NCBI GenBank assembly: GCA_035259885.1
Contig: DATFWC010000303.1
Coordinates: 1 to 49,565 of the forward strand
DNA length: 49,565 nucleotides
Origin: Xanthobacteraceae bacterium
Lineage (GTDB): Bacteria; Pseudomonadota; Alphaproteobacteria; Rhizobiales; Xanthobacteraceae
Direction: 5' to 3'
Shown here one piece after another: positions 20,658-49,202 of the stretch. Under the pieces are notes generated by a model. The model was not told where the DNA came from. It saw nothing but the letters and a program-made list of their open reading frames with translations, and did no database searches. Each line of letters begins with the position of its first letter. The stretch's first letter is position 1. Both the position numbers and the translations under genes were made by a program.

Positions 20658-20863
20658 CGTGGTTTTCCCCTGTGGCCGGGGTCTCACGCGGCCGCAATGC
20701 CGTGTCAAGCATCGCCCTTCGGGCCGGCGCGCCGCCGGTGCCCGCGCCTGCGGTGTTTTGCGAGCCCTGGCAATGCCTTGTGGCGACTGCCGCCGTGTCG
20801 CGTTGTCGCCACAGGAGTATTGCAGTACATGTCGGCAGCTGCGGGGAGGAACGGATTGGCCGA

Positions 20864-23023
<2,160 letters not shown>

Positions 23024-23109: not shown

Positions 23110-24411
23110 ATGGACGAGCGCACCCGCGAACCCATCCAGATCCGGGCCGAGGACATCAACCCGCGCTACAACTGGGCGCGCGCGCTGCCGGCGCTCGGCA
23201 CCATGGGGGTCGATTTCGAGGAACGCGTCGACTACCGGCGCCTACACCGCTACCGGCTGTCGCGCGTCAAGCAAGCGCTGGAGAAATCCGACCTCGGCGC
23301 ACTGCTGGTGTTCGACGTCAATAACATCCGCTACATCACGTCGACCAAGATCGGCGAGTGGGAGCGCGACAAGTTGTGCCGCTGGGCACTGCTCACCCGC
23401 GACGGCGACCCGATCCTGTGGGACTTCGGCTCCGCCGCCGTGCACCACAAGCTCTACGTGCCGTGGCTCAAGCCCGAGAACTGCAAGGCCGGGCTGATTG
23501 GCCTGCGCGGCACGGTGTCGCCGTCCTTCGGCCTGATGAAGCGCCACGCCGAGGAAATAGCGGCGCTGATCCGCGAGGCGGGCGTCGGCAACATGCCGGT
23601 CGGCGTCGACATCATCGAGCCGCCGATGATGTTCGAGCTGGAGAAGGCGGGATTGAAGATCGTCGACGGCCAGCAGACCATGCTGGAGGCGCGCGAGGTC
23701 AAGAACATCGACGAGATCGCGCTTCTCAACCGCGCCGCCGCCATGGTGGACGGCGCTTACCACCTGATCAACGAGGAGCTCAAACCTGGCGTGCGTGAGA
23801 ACGACATCGTCGCCAAGGTGAACGAATTCCTCTACCGCAACGGCTCCGATGACGTGGAGGCGATCAACGCCATCTCGGGCGAGCGTTGCAACCCGCACCC
23901 GCACAACTTCACCGACCGCATGCTGCGCCCGGGCGACCAGGCGTTCTTCGACATTCTCCAGTCGTTCATGGGCTACCGCACCTGCTACTACCGGACCTTC
24001 AATGTCGGGCGCGCCACGCCGGTGCAGCACGACGCCTACAAGAAGGCGCGCGAGTGGCTCGACAACGCCATCGCGCTGATCACGCCCGGCGTCACCACCG
24101 ACAAGGTGTGCTCGGTGTGGCCGAAGGCGCCGGAGTTCGGTTTCCCGGACGAGATGGCGGCGTTCGGGCTGCAGTTTGGCCACGGGCTCGGCCTAGCGCT
24201 GCACGAGCGGCCGATCATCTCGCGCGTCGTGTCGATGGATCACCCGACCGAGATCAAGGAAGGCATGGTTTTCGCGCTCGAAACCTATTGCCCGGCCAAG
24301 GACGGGTTCTCGGCCGCGCGCATCGAGGAGGAAGTGGTGGTCACCGACAAGGGCTGCCGCGTGATCACGCTGTTCCCGGCCGAGGAGCTGCCGATCAGCC
24401 ACAGGTATTGA
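23110..24411 (+). CDS. M24-fold (creatinase/prolidase/DddP-like) protein, atypical metal site
   Basis: ORF track 23047..24411, trimmed to MDERTRE... (GAGGGAG upstream). Pita-bread motifs FFD..., GHGLGLALHERP, FALETY, IEEEVVVT. The second canonical Asp appears replaced by Cys (GYRTCYYRT). Confidence 0.8.
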   Translation: MDERTREPIQIRAEDINPRYNWARALPALGTMGVDFEERVDYRRLHRYRLSRVKQALEKSDLGALLVFDVNNIRYITSTKIGEWERDKLCRWALLTRDGDPILWDFGSAAVHHKLYVPWLKPENCKAGLIGLRGTVSPSFGLMKRHAEEIAALIREAGVGNMPVGVDIIEPPMMFELEKAGLKIVDGQQTMLEAREVKNIDEIALLNRAAAMVDGAYHLINEELKPGVRENDIVAKVNEFLYRNGSDDVEAINAISGERCNPHPHNFTDRMLRPGDQAFFDILQSFMGYRTCYYRTFNVGRATPVQHDAYKKAREWLDNAIALITPGVTTDKVCSVWPKAPEFGFPDEMAAFGLQFGHGLGLALHERPIISRVVSMDHPTEIKEGMVFALETYCPAKDGFSAARIEEEVVVTDKGCRVITLFPAEELPISHRY

Positions 24412-31598: not shown

Positions 31599-31722
31599 TG
31601 TCCCGCACGCGGTGCAGCGCGAAGCGATGCACCGCAGATGCGGGACCCCGGTTTCTTTGTGATAACAACCGGGGTCCCGGGTCTGCAGCGCGCCACTGCG
31701 TGCTGCGCTGCGCCCGGGACAG
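31599..31722. repeat. REP-B palindromic element, copy 1
   Basis: GTCCCGCACGCGGTGCAGCGCGAAGCGATGCACCGCAGATGCGGGACCCCGGTT...AACCGGGGTCCCGGGTCTGCAGCGCG...GCGCCCGGGAC. Two tandem hairpins at a convergent junction. Confidence 0.85.
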
Positions 31723-39580: not shown

Positions 39581-40389
39581 AGCTCGCTATTCTCTCCGAC
39601 ATCCACGCCAATGCGGAAGCGCTGCGTGCGACCCTGGCCAAAATCTCCACCGTCGCCGTCAACCGCATCGTGTGCCTCGGCGACATCGTCGGCTACAACG
39701 CCGACCCGGCCGCCTGCATCACGCTGCTGCGCCAGGCCGGGGCGCTATGCGTGGCCGGCAATCACGACCGCGCGGTCACCGGGCAGATCACAGTCGAAGG
39801 CTTTCCCCACACCGCCGTGCGGGCGGTGGCGTGGACACGAAAACGGCTCGACGCCGAGGCGCTCGACTATCTGGCCGGGTTGCCGCCCACGCTCAGCATC
39901 GCGGGGCAGCTAGTGGCGGTGCACGGCGCGTTGCATCCGGAGCACGGCTTCGAGATGGTGCGGCTCGACAGCGACGAGGCGCGGCGGCTGAGCTTTGCGG
40001 CCTTGATGCGCCACCCCTCGGGCGCGCGGGTGTGCGCTGTCGGGCATACGCATCATGTCGGCATCTTCGAACTGGAGGACGGCACGATCCGCCAGCGCAC
40101 CGCCGATCCGGTGGCCCTGCGTCCCGGCGCCTTCTACCTGATCAATCCCGGCAGCGTCGGAGAGCCGCGCACCGCCGACCCTCGTGCCAGCTTCCTCGTG
40201 CTCGATGGGGCGCGCCAAGTCGTGTCCGTGCACCGCGTCAGCTATGACGCCGAGGCGGCGCTGGCGAAGACGCGGGCCGCCGGGCTGATGCCGGCGTTCT
40301 CGTTCCTGCCATCGCCGGTGCGCGACGGCCTCAGGTGGGGCGTGCGCGCCGCCGGGCTTTCCGACGCCGTGAAGCGGATGGTCGGCTAG
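39577..40389 (+). CDS. Metallophosphoesterase (calcineurin-like, YfcE/MJ0936-type)
   Basis: Track ORF 39319..40389, trimmed to MKLAILSDIHAN. Motifs DIH, GDIVGY, GNHD, GHTH. ATGA overlap with the last frame of the ATP-grasp remnant. Confidence 0.85.
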   Translation: MKLAILSDIHANAEALRATLAKISTVAVNRIVCLGDIVGYNADPAACITLLRQAGALCVAGNHDRAVTGQITVEGFPHTAVRAVAWTRKRLDAEALDYLAGLPPTLSIAGQLVAVHGALHPEHGFEMVRLDSDEARRLSFAALMRHPSGARVCAVGHTHHVGIFELEDGTIRQRTADPVALRPGAFYLINPGSVGEPRTADPRASFLVLDGARQVVSVHRVSYDAEAALAKTRAAGLMPAFSFLPSPVRDGLRWGVRAAGLSDAVKRMVG

Positions 40390-41336
40390 CGCCTCGCGCG
40401 GTTTCGAGCCGCGCGCTTTGTGCGCCGGCCTCCGGCGGAGCGGCCGCGCGTCACGCCGGCCATGTCCTCGAGCACCGCGCACACCGCGGCGGTGTCATGG
40501 GCCGCGTGGCCCTGCGACATGGCGGCGGCGTAGATCGGCAGGGTGGCGCTGAACAGCGGTGTGGGACAGCCGGCGCCGGCGGCATATTCGCCGATCACTG
40601 CCATATCCTTCTGCCACGTGGAGATCTTCATGGTGGCCTCGCTGTAGCGGTTGCGCACCATCATGGGGGCGCGCAGCTCGAACACGCGCGAGGTCCCGGC
40701 GCCGGCGGTGACGAGGTCGTGTACCACCTTGGGGTCGAGTCCGGCCTTCATGCCCAGCACCATGGCTTCCGCGCTGGCCACGTTGTGGATCGCGACCAGC
40801 AGATTGGCGACGTATTTCATGCGGCTGCCGTTGCCGTATTCGCCGAGGTCGTACACGGCGCGCGAAAACGCCGCGAACATCGGACGCAGGCCTGCGATCG
40901 TCTTGGCATCGCCGCTGGCGTAGACCACGAGGTCGCCCACCCGCGCCTGCGCGCCCGTGCCGCTCACCGGGCAATCGAGCGCAACATGGCCGGCCGCCTG
41001 CATCGCCTGCGCGGCCTGCATCTTGTCGGCGAGCGCGAAGGTGCCGGCCTCGATCAGGACGCGGCGCGGCGCGCCGGCCGCGATGATGTTCTTGACGGTC
41101 GCTTCGAGCGCATAGGGCGTGGGCAGGCTCGTGATGATGACCGGCACCTCACGGGCCACCGCCTTGGCATCCGGCACGATCTTCACGCCCGCCCGCGCGG
41201 CTTCCTTGCGGCGGGCCGGATTGGTGTCGAAGCCGACAACGCGCCAGCCGGCGGCCGCGAGGCGTCGCGCGTAGGCACCGCCCATGATGCCGAGGCCAAT
41301 GACTCCGACCGCACCTTTGCGTCTGGCCGCCTTCAT
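40386..41336 (-). CDS. NAD(P)-dependent beta-hydroxyacid dehydrogenase family protein (second paralogue)
   Basis: ORF track 40386..41372, trimmed to MKAARRKGAVGVIGLGIMGGAYARRLAAAG. Unusual Arg-rich C-terminal tail. Confidence 0.85.
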   Translation of the reverse strand: MKAARRKGAVGVIGLGIMGGAYARRLAAAGWRVVGFDTNPARRKEAARAGVKIVPDAKAVAREVPVIITSLPTPYALEATVKNIIAAGAPRRVLIEAGTFALADKMQAAQAMQAAGHVALDCPVSGTGAQARVGDLVVYASGDAKTIAGLRPMFAAFSRAVYDLGEYGNGSRMKYVANLLVAIHNVASAEAMVLGMKAGLDPKVVHDLVTAGAGTSRVFELRAPMMVRNRYSEATMKISTWQKDMAVIGEYAAGAGCPTPLFSATLPIYAAAMSQGHAAHDTAAVCAVLEDMAGVTRGRSAGGRRTKRAARNRARR

Positions 41337-41485
41337 TCCGATCCTCCTCGCCCGCGTCCCCCGTCGACTCATGCGCCGCGACTATGCCCCATCATGGTAC
41401 GCAATGAAGCCTCTTTTTTCGCCGCAACCGTTCGCCTATCGTCGGGCCGCACGTAGTTTCACTGATCTCAAGCCGTGGGGGAATC

Positions 41486-41932
41486 ATGTCGGTTGTCACT
41501 CTGGCGCAGGCCAGCACCATCGTCGACGTCGCGCTGAAGACCGGACGGGACACCAAGTGCGCGCCGCTCAGCGTCGCGGTTCTCGATGCCGGCGGGCACC
41601 TCGTGGCGTTCAAGCGCGAGGACAAGTCGGGCATCCTGCGCTTCGACATTGCGTTCGGGAAGGCGTGGGGTGCGCTCGGCATGGGGTTCGGCTCCCGCAC
41701 GCTGTTCGAGCGTGCCGCCAATACCCCGCAGTTCTTCACCATGCTGGCGGCGGCGAGCGGCGGACGCATCGTGACCAATCCGGGCGGCGTGCTGATCCGT
41801 GACGGCGGCGGCGACGTCATCGGCGCGGTCGGGATCTCCGGCGACACGTCGGAGAAGGACGAGGCCTGCGCTATCGCCGGCATCGAGGCGGCGGGCCTGA
41901 GGGCCGATCCCGGCGGCACCACCAAGGCTTGA
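41486..41932 (+). CDS. GlcG/HbpS-like (DUF336) protein
   Basis: ORF track. ...GGVLIRDGGGDVIGAVGISGDTSEKDEACA... is the DUF336 signature. Confidence 0.85.
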   Translation: MSVVTLAQASTIVDVALKTGRDTKCAPLSVAVLDAGGHLVAFKREDKSGILRFDIAFGKAWGALGMGFGSRTLFERAANTPQFFTMLAAASGGRIVTNPGGVLIRDGGGDVIGAVGISGDTSEKDEACAIAGIEAAGLRADPGGTTKA

Positions 41933-41943
41933 GGAGACTCGCC

Positions 41944-42594
41944 ATGAAGCTGTTTTCGTTCTGGCGCTCGCTGGCCACCTACCGCGTGCGCATCGCGCTC
42001 AACCTCAAAGGCATCCAGCCCGACGAGGTGATCGACGTGAACCTGATGAAGGCCGAGCAGCGCGCGGAACAATTCCGCGCCGTCAACCCGATGATGGCGC
42101 TGCCGGCATTGATCGACGGCGACGGACCGACGCTGGTCGAGTCGCTGGCGATCATCGAATATCTCGACGAGGTGCATCCGCATCCGCGGCTGCTGCCGGC
42201 CGACCCGCGTGGGCGCGCCCGTGTGCGCGGGCTGGCGCAGATCATCGCCTGCGATTCGCATCCGCTGGTGGTGCCGCGCGTACGCGAATACCTCGAGCAT
42301 GAGTTCAAGCTCGACGAGCCGACCCGCATGGCCTGGTGCCGCCACTGGATCACCGCGGCGCTCACGGCGCTGGAGGCGCATCTGAAGAGCCCGGACACGG
42401 GAAAATTCTGCCATGGCGATGCGGTCGGCCTCGCCGACATCTGCCTGGCCAGCCAGGCGGCCGGCGCCAAATTCTTCCAGGTCGATACGTCGCCCTACCC
42501 GACGGTCAACCGCATCGTCGACGCCTGCCTGGCGATGGACGCGTTCGCACGCGCGCATCCGCTCAAGCAGCCGGGCGCGCCGGCCTCTACGTAG
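41944..42594 (+). CDS. maiA: Zeta-class GST: maleylacetoacetate/maleylpyruvate isomerase
   Basis: ORF track 41929..42594, trimmed to MKLFSFWRSLATYRVRIALNLKG.... ...LPALIDGDGPTLVESLAIIEYLDE.... Confidence 0.8.
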   Translation: MKLFSFWRSLATYRVRIALNLKGIQPDEVIDVNLMKAEQRAEQFRAVNPMMALPALIDGDGPTLVESLAIIEYLDEVHPHPRLLPADPRGRARVRGLAQIIACDSHPLVVPRVREYLEHEFKLDEPTRMAWCRHWITAALTALEAHLKSPDTGKFCHGDAVGLADICLASQAAGAKFFQVDTSPYPTVNRIVDACLAMDAFARAHPLKQPGAPAST

Positions 42595-42597
42595 GGC

Positions 42598-43590
42598 TCA
42601 GCGCCTGCCGCCGGCGCGCGCGTGGCGGGCGGCGCCCTCGCCTTTCGCCCGCCTGAGCCTGCGCGCGTCCATTGCCTCGTCCCAGACTTCCTGGATGTGC
42701 GCCACCTCGGCCTCGAACCGCTCGAGGAACAGCCGCGCCTGGGTGCTCAAGGTCCGCCGCGCCGGCTGGATGACGACGCAGTCGATGTGCATCGGCGGAT
42801 CGACGATCGGATTGACGATGAGGTCGCCCTTGTCGATGTCGTTGACCGCGATGACGCTCGGCAGCACCGTTACCCAGTCGGAGCGGGCGATGAATTCGAA
42901 CGTGCCCATCATGGCGTCCATTTCCAGCGTGGCGGCGACCTCGATGCCGTGCGTCTGGAAATAGGTGTCGAGGTTGCGCCGGCGCACGTTGTGCGGCGCC
43001 GGCACCACCACCTTCAGCGGCGCCAGCGCGGCCAGCCGCACCGGCGCCAGCGGCTCGAGCCCGCGCTGGCGGCCGGAGATCAGGACTTCGCGGTCGCGCA
43101 CGAGCAGCCGTGACTTCAATCCGATCTGCCCCTCGAAGGCTGGCACGATGGCGAAATCGAGTTCGTCGTCGCGCACCATCTCGGTGAGCAGGCCGCTGTA
43201 GCCTTCGAACACATGCAGCCGCACGTCAGGATAGCGCGGCACGAAGTACTCGAGCGTCGGCGCCAGCACGGCGCGGGTGAAGGTCGGCATCAGCCCGATG
43301 CGCAGGTCGCCGGTCACCAGGCCGCCGAGCGCCCGCACCTCCTCGTCGGCAGTCTCCAGCATGCCCACCGCCTCGACGCAGCGCCGGTAGTAGCGCAGGC
43401 CCGCCGGCGTCGGCACCACGCCGGCGCTCGAGCGCTCGAACAGCTTTACCCCGAGCTCGCGCTCGACTGCGGCGACGTGCTGCGAAATGCCGGATTGGGT
43501 GGCGTGCTCGCGCTCCGCCGCACGCGTGAACGAGCCCTCCTCGCACACGGCGATGACCGCGCGTATTTGGCGAAGGGCGATTGCCGACAT
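42598..43590 (-). CDS. LysR-family transcriptional regulator
   Basis: ORF track. HTH ...EEGSFTRAAEREHATQSGISQHVAAVERELG.... Divergent from the M24-like operon. Confidence 0.9.
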   Translation of the reverse strand: MSAIALRQIRAVIAVCEEGSFTRAAEREHATQSGISQHVAAVERELGVKLFERSSAGVVPTPAGLRYYRRCVEAVGMLETADEEVRALGGLVTGDLRIGLMPTFTRAVLAPTLEYFVPRYPDVRLHVFEGYSGLLTEMVRDDELDFAIVPAFEGQIGLKSRLLVRDREVLISGRQRGLEPLAPVRLAALAPLKVVVPAPHNVRRRNLDTYFQTHGIEVAATLEMDAMMGTFEFIARSDWVTVLPSVIAVNDIDKGDLIVNPIVDPPMHIDCVVIQPARRTLSTQARLFLERFEAEVAHIQEVWDEAMDARRLRRAKGEGAARHARAGGRR

Positions 43591-43699
43591 TAGAAAACCT
43601 TATGCATCAGCGCAGAATATATTATTTCTTCTGCATGTGCCATATATCTAGGATATCGCAGTCATTTTTCGCAAAAGCCTTGCGTTCGGGAGGATCCTC
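43591..43699. promoter_or_regulatory. AT-rich divergent promoter region with a LysR-box-like inverted repeat
   Basis: GCAGAA-N11-TTCTGC at 43612-43634, extendable to an imperfect TATG...GCAGAA arm pair. GGGAGGA lies 5 nt upstream of the ATG at 43700. Confidence 0.45.
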
Positions 43700-44968
43700 A
43701 TGGGAGCGAATTTCGGCACCGTCGGCATGGACTGGCAGCAGCGCGTCAACTGGGACCGCCTGCGCACGTACCGGACCGAACGCGCGCGCGAGATGATGAA
43801 GAAGCACGGGCTCGGCGCCATGCTGTGCATGTACGACGAGAACGTGCGCTACCTCACCGGCACGCTGACGCCCGGATGGAACCGGCTCAAGCCCGGCCTG
43901 CGCTACGCCATGCTGTGCGGCGACGGGGCGCCGATCCTGTTCGAGCAGGGCGACCTGGGATTCCAGATCGAGCGCCACTCGCCGTGGCTGCCCAAGGAGA
44001 ACGTCCGCCATTCCTTCGCCTGGATCAAAGGCGCGGCCGGCCCCGCCTCGACCCAGCAGGTGACCAAGTTCACCAACGCCATCATCGAGGAGATGAAGCG
44101 GCACGGCGTGTGGGGCCAGAAGCTCGGCGTCGATTTCATCGACATCAACATGATCAACATCTTTCGCGACAAGAACATCACCTGGGTCGACGGCATGACC
44201 CCGATGATGGAGGCGCGCGCGGTCAAGAACGTCGACGAGCAGGAATGCATGCGCATCGTCGGCGCCATCGGCGACGCCACCCACTGGGAATGCATGAAGT
44301 TCCTGCGGCCCGGCATCACCGAGAACCAGGTCACGGCGCACCTGATGGAATATCTCTACTCGTTCGCCGGAATGGAGGACGTCGAGGACGTCATCGTGTC
44401 GTCGGGCCCGAACACCTGGCCCAACTGGCGCAACTTCTCCGACCGCATCATCCAGCCGGGCGACATCGTGTTCATGGATCTCGCCGCGCTGACGTGGAAC
44501 GGCTACAAGTCCTGCTACTACCGCACCTATTGTGTCGGCAAGGAGCCGACGCAGGAGCAGAAGGACACCTACGCCACCGCGCTCGAGTGGCTGTACGACT
44601 CGATCGACGCCGTGAAGGTCGGCGCCACCACCCGCGACATCGCGGAGAAATGGCCGTCCGCCATGGAGACCTGGGGCTACGAGGACGAGGATCAGGCGGC
44701 CGCCAATCTGTGGGGCCATGGGCTCGGGCTGGCGCAGTACGACCAGCCGGTCATCTCGCGCATCTGGTCGCTCGACCATCCGGTCGAGATCAAGGAAGGC
44801 ATGACGTTTGCGCTGGAGACCCAGCACGGAAAGCGCTTCCGTTACGGCGTCCGCATCGAGGAAATGCTGATCGTGCACAAGGATTCGATCGAGATCGTCT
44901 CCAATTTCCCGGTCAAGCAAATTACAGTGGTTGACCCGTTGCCGGGCTATGGCGACCACGTGAAGTGA
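43700..44968 (+). CDS. M24-fold (creatinase/prolidase/DddP-like) protein, atypical metal site (paralogue of 23110..24411)
   Basis: ORF track. Same architecture as the first copy. FMD..., GYKSCYYRT (Cys at the second-Asp position), GHGLGLAQYDQP, FALETQ, IEEMLIV. Confidence 0.8.
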   Translation: MGANFGTVGMDWQQRVNWDRLRTYRTERAREMMKKHGLGAMLCMYDENVRYLTGTLTPGWNRLKPGLRYAMLCGDGAPILFEQGDLGFQIERHSPWLPKENVRHSFAWIKGAAGPASTQQVTKFTNAIIEEMKRHGVWGQKLGVDFIDINMINIFRDKNITWVDGMTPMMEARAVKNVDEQECMRIVGAIGDATHWECMKFLRPGITENQVTAHLMEYLYSFAGMEDVEDVIVSSGPNTWPNWRNFSDRIIQPGDIVFMDLAALTWNGYKSCYYRTYCVGKEPTQEQKDTYATALEWLYDSIDAVKVGATTRDIAEKWPSAMETWGYEDEDQAAANLWGHGLGLAQYDQPVISRIWSLDHPVEIKEGMTFALETQHGKRFRYGVRIEEMLIVHKDSIEIVSNFPVKQITVVDPLPGYGDHVK

Positions 44969-45013
44969 CGGCGGCGCGCCAAGCGGTGCGCTGCAGGTGG
45001 TACGGAAAGCGCG

Positions 45014-46294
45014 ATGACCGAATTCATCGTCAGCCTCGGCGCGCCCGCAGGCGTGGTGGCCGACCGCATCGGCCCCAAGGCCGCGAACCTGGCGGCGCTG
45101 GCGCGCGCCGGCCTGCCCACCCCGGGCGGCTTCTGTCTCACCGCCGACGCCTACCGGCACCAATGCGAGCAGCTCGGTCTCGCGCCGTTGCTGGCCCGCT
45201 TCGGCGCCGCCAGCCCGCCGGAGGCGCGGCGGCTGTCGGTGGAGATCCGCCTGAAGCTCTATCAGGAGCCGATCGCGCAACAAATTCTAGAACCGCTGCT
45301 CGCGGCCTGGCGTGAACAGCGCCAAGCGCATGCGCTTGGCGCTGTTCGCTCGTCGGCCCTGATCGAGGACCGCGCTGGCGCCAACTTCGCCGGCCAGTTC
45401 GAAAGTTTTCTCGGCCTCGACAGCGAGGCCGACGTCCTCACCGCCGTGCGCGCCTGCTGGGCGGCGCTGTGGACCAGCAATGCGCGTCGCTACATGGAGA
45501 ACAACGCGCTCAATCCGGCCGACACCGCGATGGCGGTGCTCATGCAGCCGCTGGTCGCGGCGATTGCGTCGGGCGGCGGCTTGAGCGAGACCGCCGAGGG
45601 CCAGATGCTGTTGAGCGCGACCTGGGGGCTCGGCTCGGCGATCGCCCAGGGCGAGGTGGTGCCTGACCGCATCGCGCTCTCGCGCCAGGGCTTTTTGCGC
45701 GACATCCAGCCCGGCCGCAAGGATCACCGCGACGCCTGCCAGCACGGGCGCGGCGCCGCGCCGCAGGCGGTGCCGGCCGAACTGGTGAACAAGGCCTGCC
45801 TCGATGCCGGCCAGGCCGTGACGCTCGGCCGGCTGCTGCGCAAGGCCGAGGACGTGCTCGGCTATCCGGTCGAGATCGAATGGGCGCTGGACGAGAGCGG
45901 CTTCAAGGTGCTGCAGGCGCGGCCGCTGCACGTCGCGCCGGTCCGCCTGCCGGACGAGATCTGGCTGAAGCATCCGGGACTCAACGGCCATCCGGCGGGC
46001 GTCGGCTGGGGGTCGGGGCGTGCCGTCATCGTCAACTGCGAATGCGAGCTCACGCGCGTGGCGCCCGGCGACATCCTGGTGACCAAGGTGGCCGGGCCGG
46101 CGCTCAGCCATATCCTGCCGCGCGTCGGCGGCGTGGTGGCAGAGCTTGGCGGCAGCACCTCGCACCTCGCATCGCTGGCGCGCGAACGCGGCATTCCGAT
46201 GGTGCTGGGCGTGCTCGATGCCACCAGCCGGATTCCCGACGGCGCCCAGGTTGCGGTCGACGGGGTCGCCGGCATCGTGCGTTGGATGCGCTGA
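45014..46294 (+). CDS. PEP-synthase-like protein: PPDK_N nucleotide-binding domain plus phosphohistidine swivel domain, no PEP/pyruvate TIM-barrel
   Basis: ORF track. IGPKAANLAALARAGLPTPGGFCLT, VRSSALIEDRAGANFAGQFESFLG. C-terminal GGSTSHLASLARERGIPMV (swivel His). The protein ends ~35 aa later. Confidence 0.85.
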   Translation: MTEFIVSLGAPAGVVADRIGPKAANLAALARAGLPTPGGFCLTADAYRHQCEQLGLAPLLARFGAASPPEARRLSVEIRLKLYQEPIAQQILEPLLAAWREQRQAHALGAVRSSALIEDRAGANFAGQFESFLGLDSEADVLTAVRACWAALWTSNARRYMENNALNPADTAMAVLMQPLVAAIASGGGLSETAEGQMLLSATWGLGSAIAQGEVVPDRIALSRQGFLRDIQPGRKDHRDACQHGRGAAPQAVPAELVNKACLDAGQAVTLGRLLRKAEDVLGYPVEIEWALDESGFKVLQARPLHVAPVRLPDEIWLKHPGLNGHPAGVGWGSGRAVIVNCECELTRVAPGDILVTKVAGPALSHILPRVGGVVAELGGSTSHLASLARERGIPMVLGVLDATSRIPDGAQVAVDGVAGIVRWMR

Positions 46295-47310
46295 TGCGCC
46301 CGCGTATCTTCGTCACCCAGCCGATCGCCGACAGCGCGCTCAAGCGCCTGCGCGAGCTGGCGTCGGTCAAGGTCAATCCCGACGCCAGCCGTGTGCCGCG
46401 CAAGCGCGACCTCATGGCGGCGGCGCGGGCGTGCGACATCCTGTTCAGCCGCCTGCACGACCGCATCGACCGCGACGTGCTCACCGCCAATCCCAAGCTG
46501 CGCGCGCTCTGCTCGATGACGATCTCGCCCGACGCCATCGACGTCGCGGCAGCGACCGAACTCGGCATTCCGGTCACCGTGATCCCGCCAATGGTGGGCG
46601 AGGCGACCGCCGACATCACGTTCGGGCTGATGCTGGCGGTGGCCCGCCGCATCCTGGAAGGCGACCGCCTGGTGCGCAAAGCCGTGTTTCCGGGCGGCCA
46701 GTCGAACTACCTCACCGGCTCGCACGTCTACGGCAAGACGCTCGGCCTGGTGGGCGGTGGCGGGCGCATCGGCAAGGCGGTGGCGCGGCGCGCGCGCGGC
46801 TTCGCCATGCGCCTCCTGTACTGGACGCCGCGGCGCAAGCCGGAAGCCGAGGAACGCGAGGCCGGCCTCACCTATGCGGCGTTCGACCAGCTCCTGGCCG
46901 AGTCCGACTTCGTGTCGCTGCACTCGCCGCTCACGCCAGAGACGCGGCACCAGATCGGCGCGCGCGAGCTCAAGCTGATGAAGAAGACCGCCTATCTCAT
47001 CAACACGGCGCGCGGACCGATCGTCGACGAGGCGGCCCTGGTGCGCGCACTGGCTCGGCGGCAGATCGCCGGCGCTGGTCTCGACGTGTTCGAGCACGAG
47101 CCCAAGGTCGAGCGCGCGCTGACCAAGATGCCCAACGTGGTCCTGACGCCCCATCTCGGCAGTGCCGTCACCGATCTACGCGAGGAGATGGCGCACGTGG
47201 TGGTCGACAACATCGTCGCTGTGCTGGAAGACCGCGTGCCGCCCAACTGCATCAACCCGCAGGTGCTGGCGGAGCCGGCGGCCGTGGCCGTGGCGCGCGC
47301 CGCCCAGTAG
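46294..47310 (+). CDS. D-isomer-specific 2-hydroxyacid dehydrogenase (glyoxylate/hydroxypyruvate reductase-like)
   Basis: Track ORF 45880..47310, trimmed to MRPRIFVTQP.... The ATG overlaps the upstream stop (TGATG). GLVGGGGRIGKAV, NTARGPIVDE, LDVFEHEP, TPHLGS. Confidence 0.85.
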   Translation: MRPRIFVTQPIADSALKRLRELASVKVNPDASRVPRKRDLMAAARACDILFSRLHDRIDRDVLTANPKLRALCSMTISPDAIDVAAATELGIPVTVIPPMVGEATADITFGLMLAVARRILEGDRLVRKAVFPGGQSNYLTGSHVYGKTLGLVGGGGRIGKAVARRARGFAMRLLYWTPRRKPEAEEREAGLTYAAFDQLLAESDFVSLHSPLTPETRHQIGARELKLMKKTAYLINTARGPIVDEAALVRALARRQIAGAGLDVFEHEPKVERALTKMPNVVLTPHLGSAVTDLREEMAHVVVDNIVAVLEDRVPPNCINPQVLAEPAAVAVARAAQ

Positions 47311-47336
47311 CAGAACCGCTGTTTTCGGAGCTCGCC

Positions 47337-48299
47337 ATGGCTCGTCCCCTGATCGCCGTCACTGACAGCGTGTTTCCCAGCCTCGATCCGGCCAAGGCCG
47401 CGCTCAAGCGCATCGATCCGGAGCTGAAGATGGCGAAGAGCGCGGCTGCAGACGATATTCTAGCGGTGGCGCGCGATGCCGACGCCGTGCTCGTCACCTA
47501 CGCGAAGCTCACCGGCGACCTGCTGCGCCAGCTCACGCGCTGCAAGGTGATCGGCCGCTTCGGCCTCGGGGTCGACAACATCGACCTGCCGGCGGCCAAG
47601 GAGATGGGCATCACGGTCACCTATGTGCCCGACTATTGCCTGCAGGAAGTGTCCGATCACGCCATGGCGCTGCTGCTGGCGCTGGCGCGAAAAATCCCCC
47701 TGTCCAATCAGCTGGTACAGGCCGGCCGCTGGGAGATGCCGGCGGTCGTGCCGATCTATCGGCTGGAGGGCCGCGTACTCGGCCTCATCGGCTTCGGCAA
47801 CATCCCGCGCAAGCTGGTGCCCAAGGCGCAGGCGTTCGGCTTGCGCGTGATCACGCACGATCCCTACCTCGCGCCCGACGTGCCCAAGGCGCTCGGCGTG
47901 GAGAGCGTGAGCTTCGACGAGCTCTTGCAAAGAAGCGAGTTCATCTCGGTGCATGCGCCGCTGACGCCGCAGACGCGCGGGCTGGTAAATGCCGCCGCCT
48001 TCACGAAGATGAAGAAGGGCGTGCTTATCGTGAATACCGCGCGCGGCCCGCTGATGGATGAGGCGGCGCTGGTGCAGGCGCTCGATTCCGGCCAGGTCGG
48101 TGGCGCGGCGCTCGACGTACTGGCCACCGAGCCACCGCCCAGAGACTCCCCCCTGCTCGGCCGCGACAACGTGATCCTGTCACCGCACACGGCGTTCTAT
48201 TCGGTCGACGCGCTCAACGAGCTGCAGACCAAATGCGCCAGCGACGTGGCGCGCGTGCTGTCGGGCGAGAAGCCGGTGTATCCCGTGAAGATGCCGTAA
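47337..48299 (+). CDS. D-isomer-specific 2-hydroxyacid dehydrogenase (CtBP/PGDH-like), second copy
   Basis: Track ORF 46146..48299, trimmed to MARPLIAVTD.... GLIGFGNIPRKLV, NTARGPLMDE, LDVLATEP, SPHTAF. Confidence 0.85.
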   Translation: MARPLIAVTDSVFPSLDPAKAALKRIDPELKMAKSAAADDILAVARDADAVLVTYAKLTGDLLRQLTRCKVIGRFGLGVDNIDLPAAKEMGITVTYVPDYCLQEVSDHAMALLLALARKIPLSNQLVQAGRWEMPAVVPIYRLEGRVLGLIGFGNIPRKLVPKAQAFGLRVITHDPYLAPDVPKALGVESVSFDELLQRSEFISVHAPLTPQTRGLVNAAAFTKMKKGVLIVNTARGPLMDEAALVQALDSGQVGGAALDVLATEPPPRDSPLLGRDNVILSPHTAFYSVDALNELQTKCASDVARVLSGEKPVYPVKMP

Positions 48300-48303
48300 C
48301 GCC

Positions 48304-48428
48304 TGTCCCGCGCGCGGTGCAGCGCGCAAGCGGTGCACCGCAGATGCGGGACCCCGGTTCTTCGCGGTAAGCAACCGGGGTCCCGGGTCTGCACCGCATC
48401 ACTCCGTGCTGCGGTGCGCCCGGGACAC
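48304..48428. repeat. REP-B palindromic element, copy 2
   Basis: Same orientation as the copy at 31599 and mostly identical by eye, again at a convergent junction. Confidence 0.85.
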
Positions 48429-48431
48429 GAG

Positions 48432-49202
48432 TCACTCCGCGGTCCAGCCGCCGTCCAACACCAGGGCCGCGCCGGTCATCAGCGACGAGGCGTCGGACGC
48501 CAGGAACACGATCGCACCGGTGATCTCGTCAAGCTGGCCGAGACGGCCGAGCTTGATCTTGGCCAGGACCTCGTTGCGGAACGCCTCGTTCTGGAAGAAC
48601 GGCCGCGTCATCGGGGTCTCCAGAAAGGTCGGCCCAAGGCTGTTGACGCGGATGTTGTGCGGCGCAAGTTCGATCGCCATGGCCTTGGTGAAGCCCTCCA
48701 TGGCGTGTTTCGACGCGCAATAGACGGTGCGCCGCGCCGCCCCCACGTGGCCCATCTGCGACGAGATGTTGATGATCGAGCCGTGCCGCCTGGCCTCGAT
48801 CAGGCGGCGTGCCACCGCCTGCGCCATGAAGAAGGCGGCGCGCACGTTGAGGGCGAAGATGGCGTCAAAATCCTCGACCTTGACCTCCATGAGGTAGGCC
48901 GGTCGGTTGGTGCCGGCATTGTTGACCAGGATGTCGAACGGCTCCGCGGTCGCGACCGCGGAGCGCACGGCGTCGAGATCGGTGACGTCGAGCGTGAGCG
49001 GCTCGGCCGCCTCCCCGCGGGCGCGGATTGCCGCGGCCGCATCCTCGATCTCGGCTTGCGTGCGCGCCGCCACCGTGACGTGTGCACCCGCGGCGGCAAG
49101 CGCCGAGGCGGCCGCCAGCCCGATGCCGCGCCCGCCCCCCGTCACCAGCGCCCGCTTGCCGTCGAGGCGGAAGGACGGAGTTTTCGCGAGATCGGGAGTC
49201 AT
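48432..49202 (-). CDS. Short-chain dehydrogenase/reductase (SDR)
   Basis: ORF track. TGGGRGIG, NNAG, YCASKHA. Confidence 0.9.
   Translation of the reverse strand: MTPDLAKTPSFRLDGKRALVTGGGRGIGLAAASALAAAGAHVTVAARTQAEIEDAAAAIRARGEAAEPLTLDVTDLDAVRSAVATAEPFDILVNNAGTNRPAYLMEVKVEDFDAIFALNVRAAFFMAQAVARRLIEARRHGSIINISSQMGHVGAARRTVYCASKHAMEGFTKAMAIELAPHNIRVNSLGPTFLETPMTRPFFQNEAFRNEVLAKIKLGRLGQLDEITGAIVFLASDASSLMTGAALVLDGGWTAE

Follow-up and report, generated by a model that had tools for sequence, protein, structure and literature searches.

HpeHI, CreHI and PpsAB are multi-protein dikinases of small molecules, in which one protein consists of the ATP-grasp domain by itself and another joins the swivel domain to a substrate domain of the rifampin phosphotransferase (RPH) type (PMC12167813). 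RPH itself is a single-chain dikinase with a non-pyruvate acceptor (PMC4844700), and Mycobacterium tuberculosis has VadK (Rv1127c), a PPDK derivative that lacks the barrel, autophosphorylates on histidine and has been described as regulating enzymes of the methylcitrate cycle (PMC13400623). The dimethylsulfoniopropionate (DMSP) lyase DddP, an enzyme of the M24 fold, has six metal ligands (D295, D297, D307, H371, E406 and E421), and its residues Tyr366 and Asp377 are invariant (PMC4108388). Here we report on a gene cluster from a soil bacterium of the Xanthobacteraceae in which a gene for an M24-like, DddP-like protein (422 aa; 43700-44968, + strand) is followed by one for a truncated dikinase resembling phosphoenolpyruvate (PEP) synthase (426 aa; 45014-46294, +) and by two genes for D-2-hydroxyacid dehydrogenases, DH1 (46294-47310, +) and DH2 (47337-48299, +). 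Positions are those of the window, by which we mean the whole stretch of DNA that was analyzed: 49,565 nucleotides comprising one whole contig (DATFWC010000303.1, assembly GCA_035259885.1) of a metagenome-assembled genome (MAG) that is 84% complete. We describe the domain content, the intact catalytic motifs and the tight genomic coupling of the M24-like protein and the dikinase, and we argue that the pair probably forms an undescribed ATP-driven enzyme. An earlier note on this DNA, made from the letters alone, had not recognised the combination as a described pathway. A database search matched the cluster to no characterised pathway; nor did we find in the literature a published description of an M24 protein paired with a truncated dikinase.

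The truncated dikinase and the M24-like protein across genomes

In a single alignment, the dikinase matches positions 19-460 of the 798-position NCBIfam model for PpsA, with a score of 218 bits against a cut-off of 598. Two domains of PEP synthase are present: an ATP-grasp domain (PPDK_N, PF01326) at residues 17-308 (E = 1.8e-54) and a swivel domain (PEP-utilizers, PF00391) at residues 350-420, which carries a GGSTSH motif with H384. RSS112-114 of the nucleotide site, T382 and H384 are invariant in 94 dikinase orthologs; E287 and E289 are invariant as well. The TIM barrel of PEP synthase, PEP-utilizers_C, is missing, and the chain ends at residue 426, six residues past the swivel domain. Since the two Pfam domains fill the 426 residues, there is no room for a third or acceptor domain. 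This length of ~426 aa is kept in hundreds of relatives. The closest PDB sequences are PEP synthases (8a8e, E = 6e-53) and RPH, and the fold matches of the structural model are RPH, PEP synthase, HpeI and PPDK. Judged from its sequence, the truncated dikinase looks like an active enzyme and not like a gene remnant. A search of the genome for PEP-utilizers_C detected two barrels only, one in a full-length PPDK of 938 aa, together with PPDK_N, and one in a 767-aa open frame that is probably an enzyme-I homolog; no free-standing barrel gene was found by this search of the 84% complete genome. A separately encoded barrel serving the dikinase was therefore rejected, both barrels lying inside larger open frames.

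The M24-like protein is composed of Creatinase_N (PF01321) and Peptidase_M24 (PF00557) domains, and its AlphaFold model (pLDDT 91.6) has the two-domain pita-bread fold that Pfam also indicates. The best fold match in the PDB was to the DddP DMSP lyases, with a TM-score of 0.82 and a root-mean-square deviation of 3.0 Å over 404 columns, N-terminal domain included; prolidases, creatinase and DoeA followed, and the probability was 1.00 for all of them. The predicted metal ligands are D260, C272, H340, E373 and E387. In the sequence alignment, the second, metal-bridging Asp of prolidases corresponds to Cys272. The earlier note had called the protein an atypical M24, and the label is apt, as a Cys occupies the position of the second metal-binding Asp of prolidases and DddP. 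Residues C272, Y274, R275, H340, E373 and E387 are invariant in 37 aligned sequences of the family and its sister families, and within the family itself the C272-Y-Y-R275 motif and several Arg residues are invariant in addition. These 37 sequences include sister families at 30-42% identity and a paralog encoded in the window at 23194-24396, and the Cys site, which they share, therefore marks a wider, unnamed M24 clade. The paralog (+ strand) is an M24 protein 37% identical to the one under study, with a Cys at the bridging-Asp position and the same invariant CYYR motif. Its gene directly follows that of a dCache hybrid sensor kinase (20753-23023), has no adjoining dikinase gene and offered no hint as to the substrate.

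The M24 family that is linked to the dikinase has a sharp boundary: identity to the window protein is no lower than 63-69% among its members and falls to at most 42% in the next representatives. Relatives 79-95% identical occur across phyla, and an Actinomycetota branch (P0241) stands at 69%. Every source is a MAG or a metagenome, and those with a name belong to the Alpha-, Beta- and Gammaproteobacteria, the Acidobacteriota, the Rokubacteria and the Actinomycetota. Public annotations give generic peptidase labels (Xaa-Pro amino- or dipeptidase), prolidases are the best PDB sequence matches, and an ESM Atlas search with the protein returned generic M24 clusters only. In comparisons with three Rokubacteria-like loci (L084, L094 and L098), the M24 protein is ~80% identical and has a ratio of nonsynonymous to synonymous substitution rates (dN/dS) of 0.18-0.20, whereas the adjacent dikinase is 52-59% identical with a dN/dS of ~0.45. 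With dS similar for the two, the rate of evolution of the M24 protein is about a third of that of the dikinase. The high identity of M24 is therefore due to selection, not to a recent transfer that involved only the M24 gene. Such slow evolution fits a heavily constrained protein.

Conservation of the pair was assessed in loci from two sources. Scanning species-representative genomes gave 80 loci, all from Hyphomicrobiales or Xanthobacteraceae MAGs, with M24 proteins 89-95% identical, and a metagenome scan seeded with a Rokubacteria homolog gave 80 more, with M24 proteins 79-90% identical to the window protein. The taxon labels of the metagenome loci derive from the seed protein, and frameshifts in MAGs blur some of the counts. 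We observed a dikinase gene in 133 of the 160 M24 loci; 20 others are cut by a contig end, leaving 133 of 140 informative loci. The dikinase gene is directly adjacent to the M24 gene in 108 loci and one gene apart in 24. The remaining seven of the 160 have room downstream yet no full-length dikinase match. Two of these were examined: L059 holds a partial dikinase match, and the genome of L070 has a dikinase on another contig. In several lineages the stop and start codons of the M24 and dikinase genes overlap, or they overlap with those of a zinc-dependent alcohol dehydrogenase (Zn-ADH) gene inserted between the two. The pair persists in Rokubacteria-like contigs, in loci whose dikinase has diverged to 51-66% identity, and in a contig of 43% G+C (L150).

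At the level of whole genomes, among 301 sampled Xanthobacteraceae genomes, the M24 gene was detected in 47 and the dikinase gene in 50; of the 51 carriers in all, 46 possess both. Among the four genomes with only the dikinase, two have the gene at a contig start, and a third, G560, has a frame-broken M24 gene beside it. The M24 gene was found in none of 400 evenly sampled Pseudomonadota genomes, indicating that the module is patchily distributed and not housekeeping.

Both dehydrogenases of the window contain the catalytic (2-Hacid_dh, PF00389) and NAD-binding (2-Hacid_dh_C, PF02826) domains of D-2-hydroxyacid dehydrogenases. DH1 is of the glyoxylate/hydroxypyruvate-reductase type (NCBIfam glyoxylate reductase, 331 bits against a cut-off of 455; PDB 2dbq, E = 1e-80), and DH2 of the short 3-phosphoglycerate-dehydrogenase/CtBP type (NCBIfam phosphoglycerate dehydrogenase, 266 bits against 454; PDB PHGDH, E = 4e-58). 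DH2 is present in only some of the related loci; among loci, DH1 and DH2 substitute for each other, or a Zn-ADH substitutes for them. A D-2-hydroxyacid dehydrogenase, of DH1 type, DH2 type or both, lies near 90 of the 112 pairs with enough downstream sequence. The other 22 have a Zn-ADH only (10 pairs), GFO/IolG-like dehydrogenases only (one) or none in view (11), so that a dehydrogenase of any kind accompanies 101 of the 112. The conserved unit is the M24 protein, the truncated dikinase and at least one NAD-dependent alcohol or hydroxyacid dehydrogenase. The four-gene set from the M24 gene to DH2 had been put forward in the earlier note, and its genes do recur together in other genomes; its conserved core is only M24 and the dikinase, however, with DH2, the divergent LysR gene and the convergent short-chain dehydrogenase/reductase (SDR) gene being specific to lineages.

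Proposed joint action of the pair and its alternatives

We put at about even the chance that the M24 protein and the truncated dikinase act jointly, as one ATP-dependent, two-protein enzyme of the dikinase type. This reading is favoured because a swivel histidine without an acceptor domain must deliver its phosphoryl group to another protein, and M24 is the only one that follows it across lineages. The ATP-grasp domain would pyrophosphorylate His384 of its own swivel domain, and the phosphoryl group would be handed by the barrel-less swivel domain to a small, anionic substrate that M24 binds at its Cys-containing metal site. Most likely, this substrate would be an enolisable 2-oxo- or hydroxy-carboxylate made or consumed by the adjacent NAD-dependent dehydrogenases; the simplest assumption would be an enolisable 2-oxo acid coming from them, comparable to the pyruvate of PEP synthase. 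The phosphorylated species could either be the stable product itself or occur only transiently, as an intermediate by which an elimination or a hydrolysis is driven. Both of these are known chemistries of the M24 fold. It is the physical interaction of the two proteins, the direction of transfer and the class of substrate that we infer here. The chemistry suggested in the earlier note, in which a small hydroxy- or keto-acid is activated through a phosphohistidine and a hydrolytic or lyase step is coupled to it, fits the anatomy of the two proteins and appears to be the best reading of it. HpeHI, CreHI and PpsAB may serve, by analogy, as a precedent for a dikinase made of two proteins (PMC12167813).

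In its fuller form, the proposal posits two-protein dikinases of a new class, with M24 as the subunit that accepts the phosphoryl group or carries out catalysis. An unrelated metalloenzyme fold would there replace the TIM barrel that the PEP-synthase-derived protein has lost, and a small oxo- or hydroxy-acid would be phosphorylated, or made to undergo elimination or hydrolysis, at the expense of ATP, which is converted to AMP and Pi. Among uncultured Alphaproteobacteria of the soil such enzymes would be widespread, as they probably would be in Rokubacteria, Acidobacteriota and Actinomycetota. We advance this form tentatively, its chance falling a little short of even.

Several observations weigh against joint action. 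To our knowledge, phosphoryl transfer from a phosphohistidine to a pita-bread enzyme has no documented case. A search for natural fusions of M24 with the dikinase found none, and its two long matches join M24 to a dehydrogenase. One apparent fusion of a DH2-like dehydrogenase with M24 (P0391, 742 aa, from two Actinomycetota-like metagenome contigs) is probably a frameshift read-through, because the dehydrogenase alignment stops at residue 264 and an unaligned Ala/Arg-rich stretch follows. No substrate can be named, since the accessory genes differ so much between lineages.

Other observations of this kind favour at the same time a different explanation, according to which the two proteins serve the same catabolic route at different steps, with no phosphate handed from one to the other. 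M24 would then work by itself as a hydrolase or lyase, in the manner of DddP, creatinase or DoeA, and the dikinase would phosphorylate a small molecule, alone or with a dehydrogenase. Genome G401 keeps the dikinase, DH1 and DH2 genes on one contig (L172, G401:C16:57000-76000) and its single M24 ortholog on another. Gene order is changeable, as in L015, where it is dikinase-DH1-M24-DH2, and a few loci (L153, L142) have an M24 gene but no dikinase within 8 kb. Furthermore, the Cys metal site is also found in the sister M24 families at 30-42% identity, and the sole member of these that was checked, the paralog in the window, has no adjoining dikinase. Against separate steps stand the lack of an acceptor-binding domain in the dikinase, the almost one-to-one co-occurrence of the two genes in genomes, and an adjacency that holds across phyla while every other neighbour changes. 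We consider this explanation unlikely, yet a serious competitor to joint action.

It is less probable still, and improbable on the whole, that the dikinase is a regulatory autokinase like VadK, which would phosphorylate or bind the M24 enzyme or the dehydrogenases to tune flux. VadK does have the same two-domain architecture, autophosphorylates on histidine and binds metabolic enzymes (PMC13400623). The window dikinase, however, appears from its sequence to derive from PEP synthase and not from PPDK: the PPDK model TIGR01828 matches it with E = 1.5e-4 only, and the 534-position NF004531, the only short PPDK model among its matches, covers the swivel domain alone with 45.6 bits. Moreover, regulators rarely overlap stop and start codons or pair one to one across phyla with one target gene.

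A split PEP synthase, with its barrel encoded elsewhere and making PEP from pyruvate supplied by the dehydrogenases, would agree with the closest sequence family of the dikinase, that of the PpsA model and 8a8e. We regard it as very improbable, for both PEP-utilizers_C domains of the 84% complete genome are parts of larger frames, the PPDK already covers this step, and the pair is patchy, being present in none of the 400 Pseudomonadota genomes and with M24 in 47 of 301 genomes of the family. Least credible of all is that M24 is an ordinary Xaa-Pro peptidase, as public annotations and the best PDB sequence matches have it, standing beside unrelated genes by chance or through the shared ancestry of close relatives, given that every member has a Cys for the bridging Asp, that all peptidase equivalog models score far below their cut-offs and that the linkage is kept in distant lineages with different flanking genes.

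Neighbouring genes, promoter region and repeat element

The cluster is preceded by a divergent gene for a LysR-type regulator (330 aa; 42598-43590, - strand) with the Pfam domains HTH_1 and LysR_substrate, whose best NCBIfam match is CynR (152 bits against a cut-off of 277). At its other end, a convergent SDR gene (256 aa; 48432-49202, -; Pfam adh_short) follows a nested palindromic repeat, REP-B (48300-48431). These six genes, the gaps of 45 nt, -1 nt (a TGATG in which the dikinase stop and the DH1 start overlap) and 26 nt from the M24 gene to DH2, a GCAGAA-N11-TTCTGC palindrome and the terminal REP element had all been placed correctly in the earlier note, as the open reading frame map and the sequence confirm, and Pfam recovered each of the domains that it had named. 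None of the five genes from lysR to DH2 reaches an NCBIfam equivalog cut-off. A motif scan found no convincing internal terminator or promoter in the operon, terminator-like sites occurring at chance frequency, and it is plausible, on this sequence evidence, that the four genes are transcribed as a single operon.

A LysR ortholog 65-80% identical lies divergently in about half of the Xanthobacteraceae loci. An SDR gene product 66-91% identical is encoded downstream in many of them and is absent from the other lineages examined, and both genes are confined to loci of the Xanthobacteraceae type. In another lineage, a different LysR gene, two IolG-like dehydrogenase genes and a TctC binding protein gene lie upstream. 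The predicted LysR dyad, ATTAG-N5-CTTAT, is located at 43589-43603. It overlaps the lysR start codon here, as it does in several relatives; others have their lysR start ~30 nt farther from the ATTAG dyad. When 28 LysR-M24 intergenic regions were aligned, this upstream dyad, ATTAG-N5-CT(A/G)AT, and an AT-rich core, CAGA(A/T)TATATTATTTC, proved to be conserved. The dyad fits the T-N11-A pattern of LysR sites as far as sequence can tell, and with HTH_1, the substrate-binding domain and the divergent gene it completes the sequence-level features of a LysR-type regulator. The GCAGAA-N11-TTCTGC element (43612-43634) exists as the earlier note had described it, but the exact palindrome is found only in the window, and its outer arms are unconserved across the 28 loci. 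The motif scan also placed two sigma-70-like matches on the minus strand, overlapping the region 43589-43634.

The REP-B element, 132 nt long and situated after DH2, folds with -94.3 kcal/mol (z = -8.2). A second copy, 90% identical, lies at 31599-31721, and there are partial copies on ~17 other contigs of the genome. The partial copies (of an element of 125-132 nt) are often close to contig ends, and the element may for this reason add to the fragmentation of the assembly.

Upstream of lysR, the window encodes an LtnD-like beta-hydroxyacid dehydrogenase (40386-41372, -), an HbpS/GlcG-like protein (41486-41932, +) and a glutathione S-transferase (GST; 41929-42594, +), as assigned by Pfam and NCBIfam. 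This trio (clusters c3, c2 and c12) recurs in most Xanthobacteraceae loci and also on a few metagenome contigs of unknown taxon (L112, L119 and L127). Whether it is part of the conserved unit is uncertain. The M24 ortholog of genome G401 (G401:C37:49655-50914) sits behind LtnD-like and HbpS-like genes.

Further accessory genes vary among the loci. They encode IolG-, IolM- and LtnD-like dehydrogenases, an FAH-type hydrolase, TctC and TRAP binding proteins, and SsuA-like, HisD-like, cyclase, UbiD and CoA-transferase proteins. Taken together, they point to small hydroxy- or oxo-carboxylates and to no single compound. In related loci (L046:12862-14169 and L050:13973-14926), the convergent SDR gene is followed by a HisD-family gene (448 bits with the hisD domain model) and then by a 'putative cyclase'; the window ends before the positions that these two genes have in the relatives. 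In 29 loci, from at least three lineages, the operon contains a gene for an SsuA/NMT1-like 'binding protein' without a signal peptide, often at the place that DH2 has in the window. In the example at L027:10747-11706 (+), the open reading frame begins with MADLPKLDVV, immediately behind a stop codon. In L143 and L154 the gene is located between the M24 and dikinase genes. Its product could be an accessory subunit in the cytoplasm, or it may point to a sulfonate substrate. A sulfonate such as sulfolactate or dihydroxypropanesulfonate (DHPS), suggested by the SsuA-like and HisD-like neighbours, is only a guess.

In Rokubacteria-like loci (L094:3684-5738 (-), L096, L097, L100 and L109), genes for a UbiD-family (de)carboxylase and a 'putative cyclase' lie upstream of M24-ZnADH-dikinase, on the opposite strand and with one further gene between; all of these loci belong to one close contig group. 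In L150 (5984-16818), the 43% G+C contig, the module consists of DH2-like, FAH, M24, Zn-ADH and dikinase genes. After it come genes for two family-III CoA-transferases, an alpha/beta hydrolase, an SDR and an acyl-CoA dehydrogenase, an arrangement that suggests that the product feeds CoA-dependent acid catabolism.

Significance and comparison with known systems

If the two proteins indeed act together, this would show that a dikinase can be assembled in a novel manner, and the M24 fold would gain its first role that is coupled to ATP. The family has thousands of members in soil metagenomes, and a single cluster at 90% identity can comprise as many as 2552 sequences. Nearly all of its lineages are uncultured, and its members invariably bear the label 'Xaa-Pro peptidase' or 'pyruvate, water dikinase'. 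Relabelling these families would alter metabolic reconstructions of soil MAGs. An M24 protein that is ~80% identical between phyla, compared with 51-66% for the dikinase, is in addition an unusually constrained enzyme and worth biochemical study.

Among M24 proteins, DddP (PDB 4S00 and 4B28) is the best structural match; it is a non-peptidase enzyme that acts on a small carboxylate. Four of its metal ligands, D295, H371, E406 and E421, align with D260, H340, E373 and E387 of the window protein; the other two are replaced, D297 by A262 and D307 by C272. Tyr366 and Asp377, which lie above the metal site of DddP and include its candidate catalytic base, correspond to A335 and Q346 in a phmmer alignment with a one-residue gap nearby. 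The identification of the protein as DddP was rejected on account of these residue changes and a score of 92.6 bits with the NCBIfam DddP model (cut-off 600); the identity is 22-23%. The prolidases and aminopeptidases P (M24B; PepE 4EGE and PepQ) share with it the Creatinase_N domain, the pita-bread fold and four of five metal ligands. Their site consists of D, D, H, E and E, whereas the second Asp is here Cys272, and the scores with the peptidase equivalogs fall far below the cut-offs. The context in the window, unlike that of peptidases, is one of dehydrogenases and a dikinase, not of peptide metabolism.

On the side of the dikinase, PEP synthase (PpsA) is the best match in both NCBIfam and PDB sequence searches. 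As in PpsA, the phosphohistidine swivel domain comes directly after the ATP-grasp domain, with order and spacing unchanged, and the RSS and GGxTSH motifs are kept. In contrast to PEP synthase, the window dikinase has no PEP/pyruvate TIM barrel and is paired with an M24 protein. VadK resembles it in having an ATP-grasp domain, a swivel histidine and no barrel, but VadK is derived from PPDK and lacks an M24 partner, whereas the window dikinase is PEP-synthase-like. The UbiD layout of the Rokubacteria-like loci recalls phenylphosphate synthase with its UbiD-type carboxylase, within that one close contig group. The architecture of HpeHI, CreHI and PpsAB differs in that the window system has the ATP-grasp and swivel domains in one chain and a presumed acceptor protein of the pita-bread fold; their substrates are phenols, and an aromatic link is not evident at the window locus. 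What the proposed two-protein enzyme would have in common with them is dependence on ATP, an acceptor other than pyruvate, the distribution of its parts over separate proteins and a swivel histidine that shuttles between sites.

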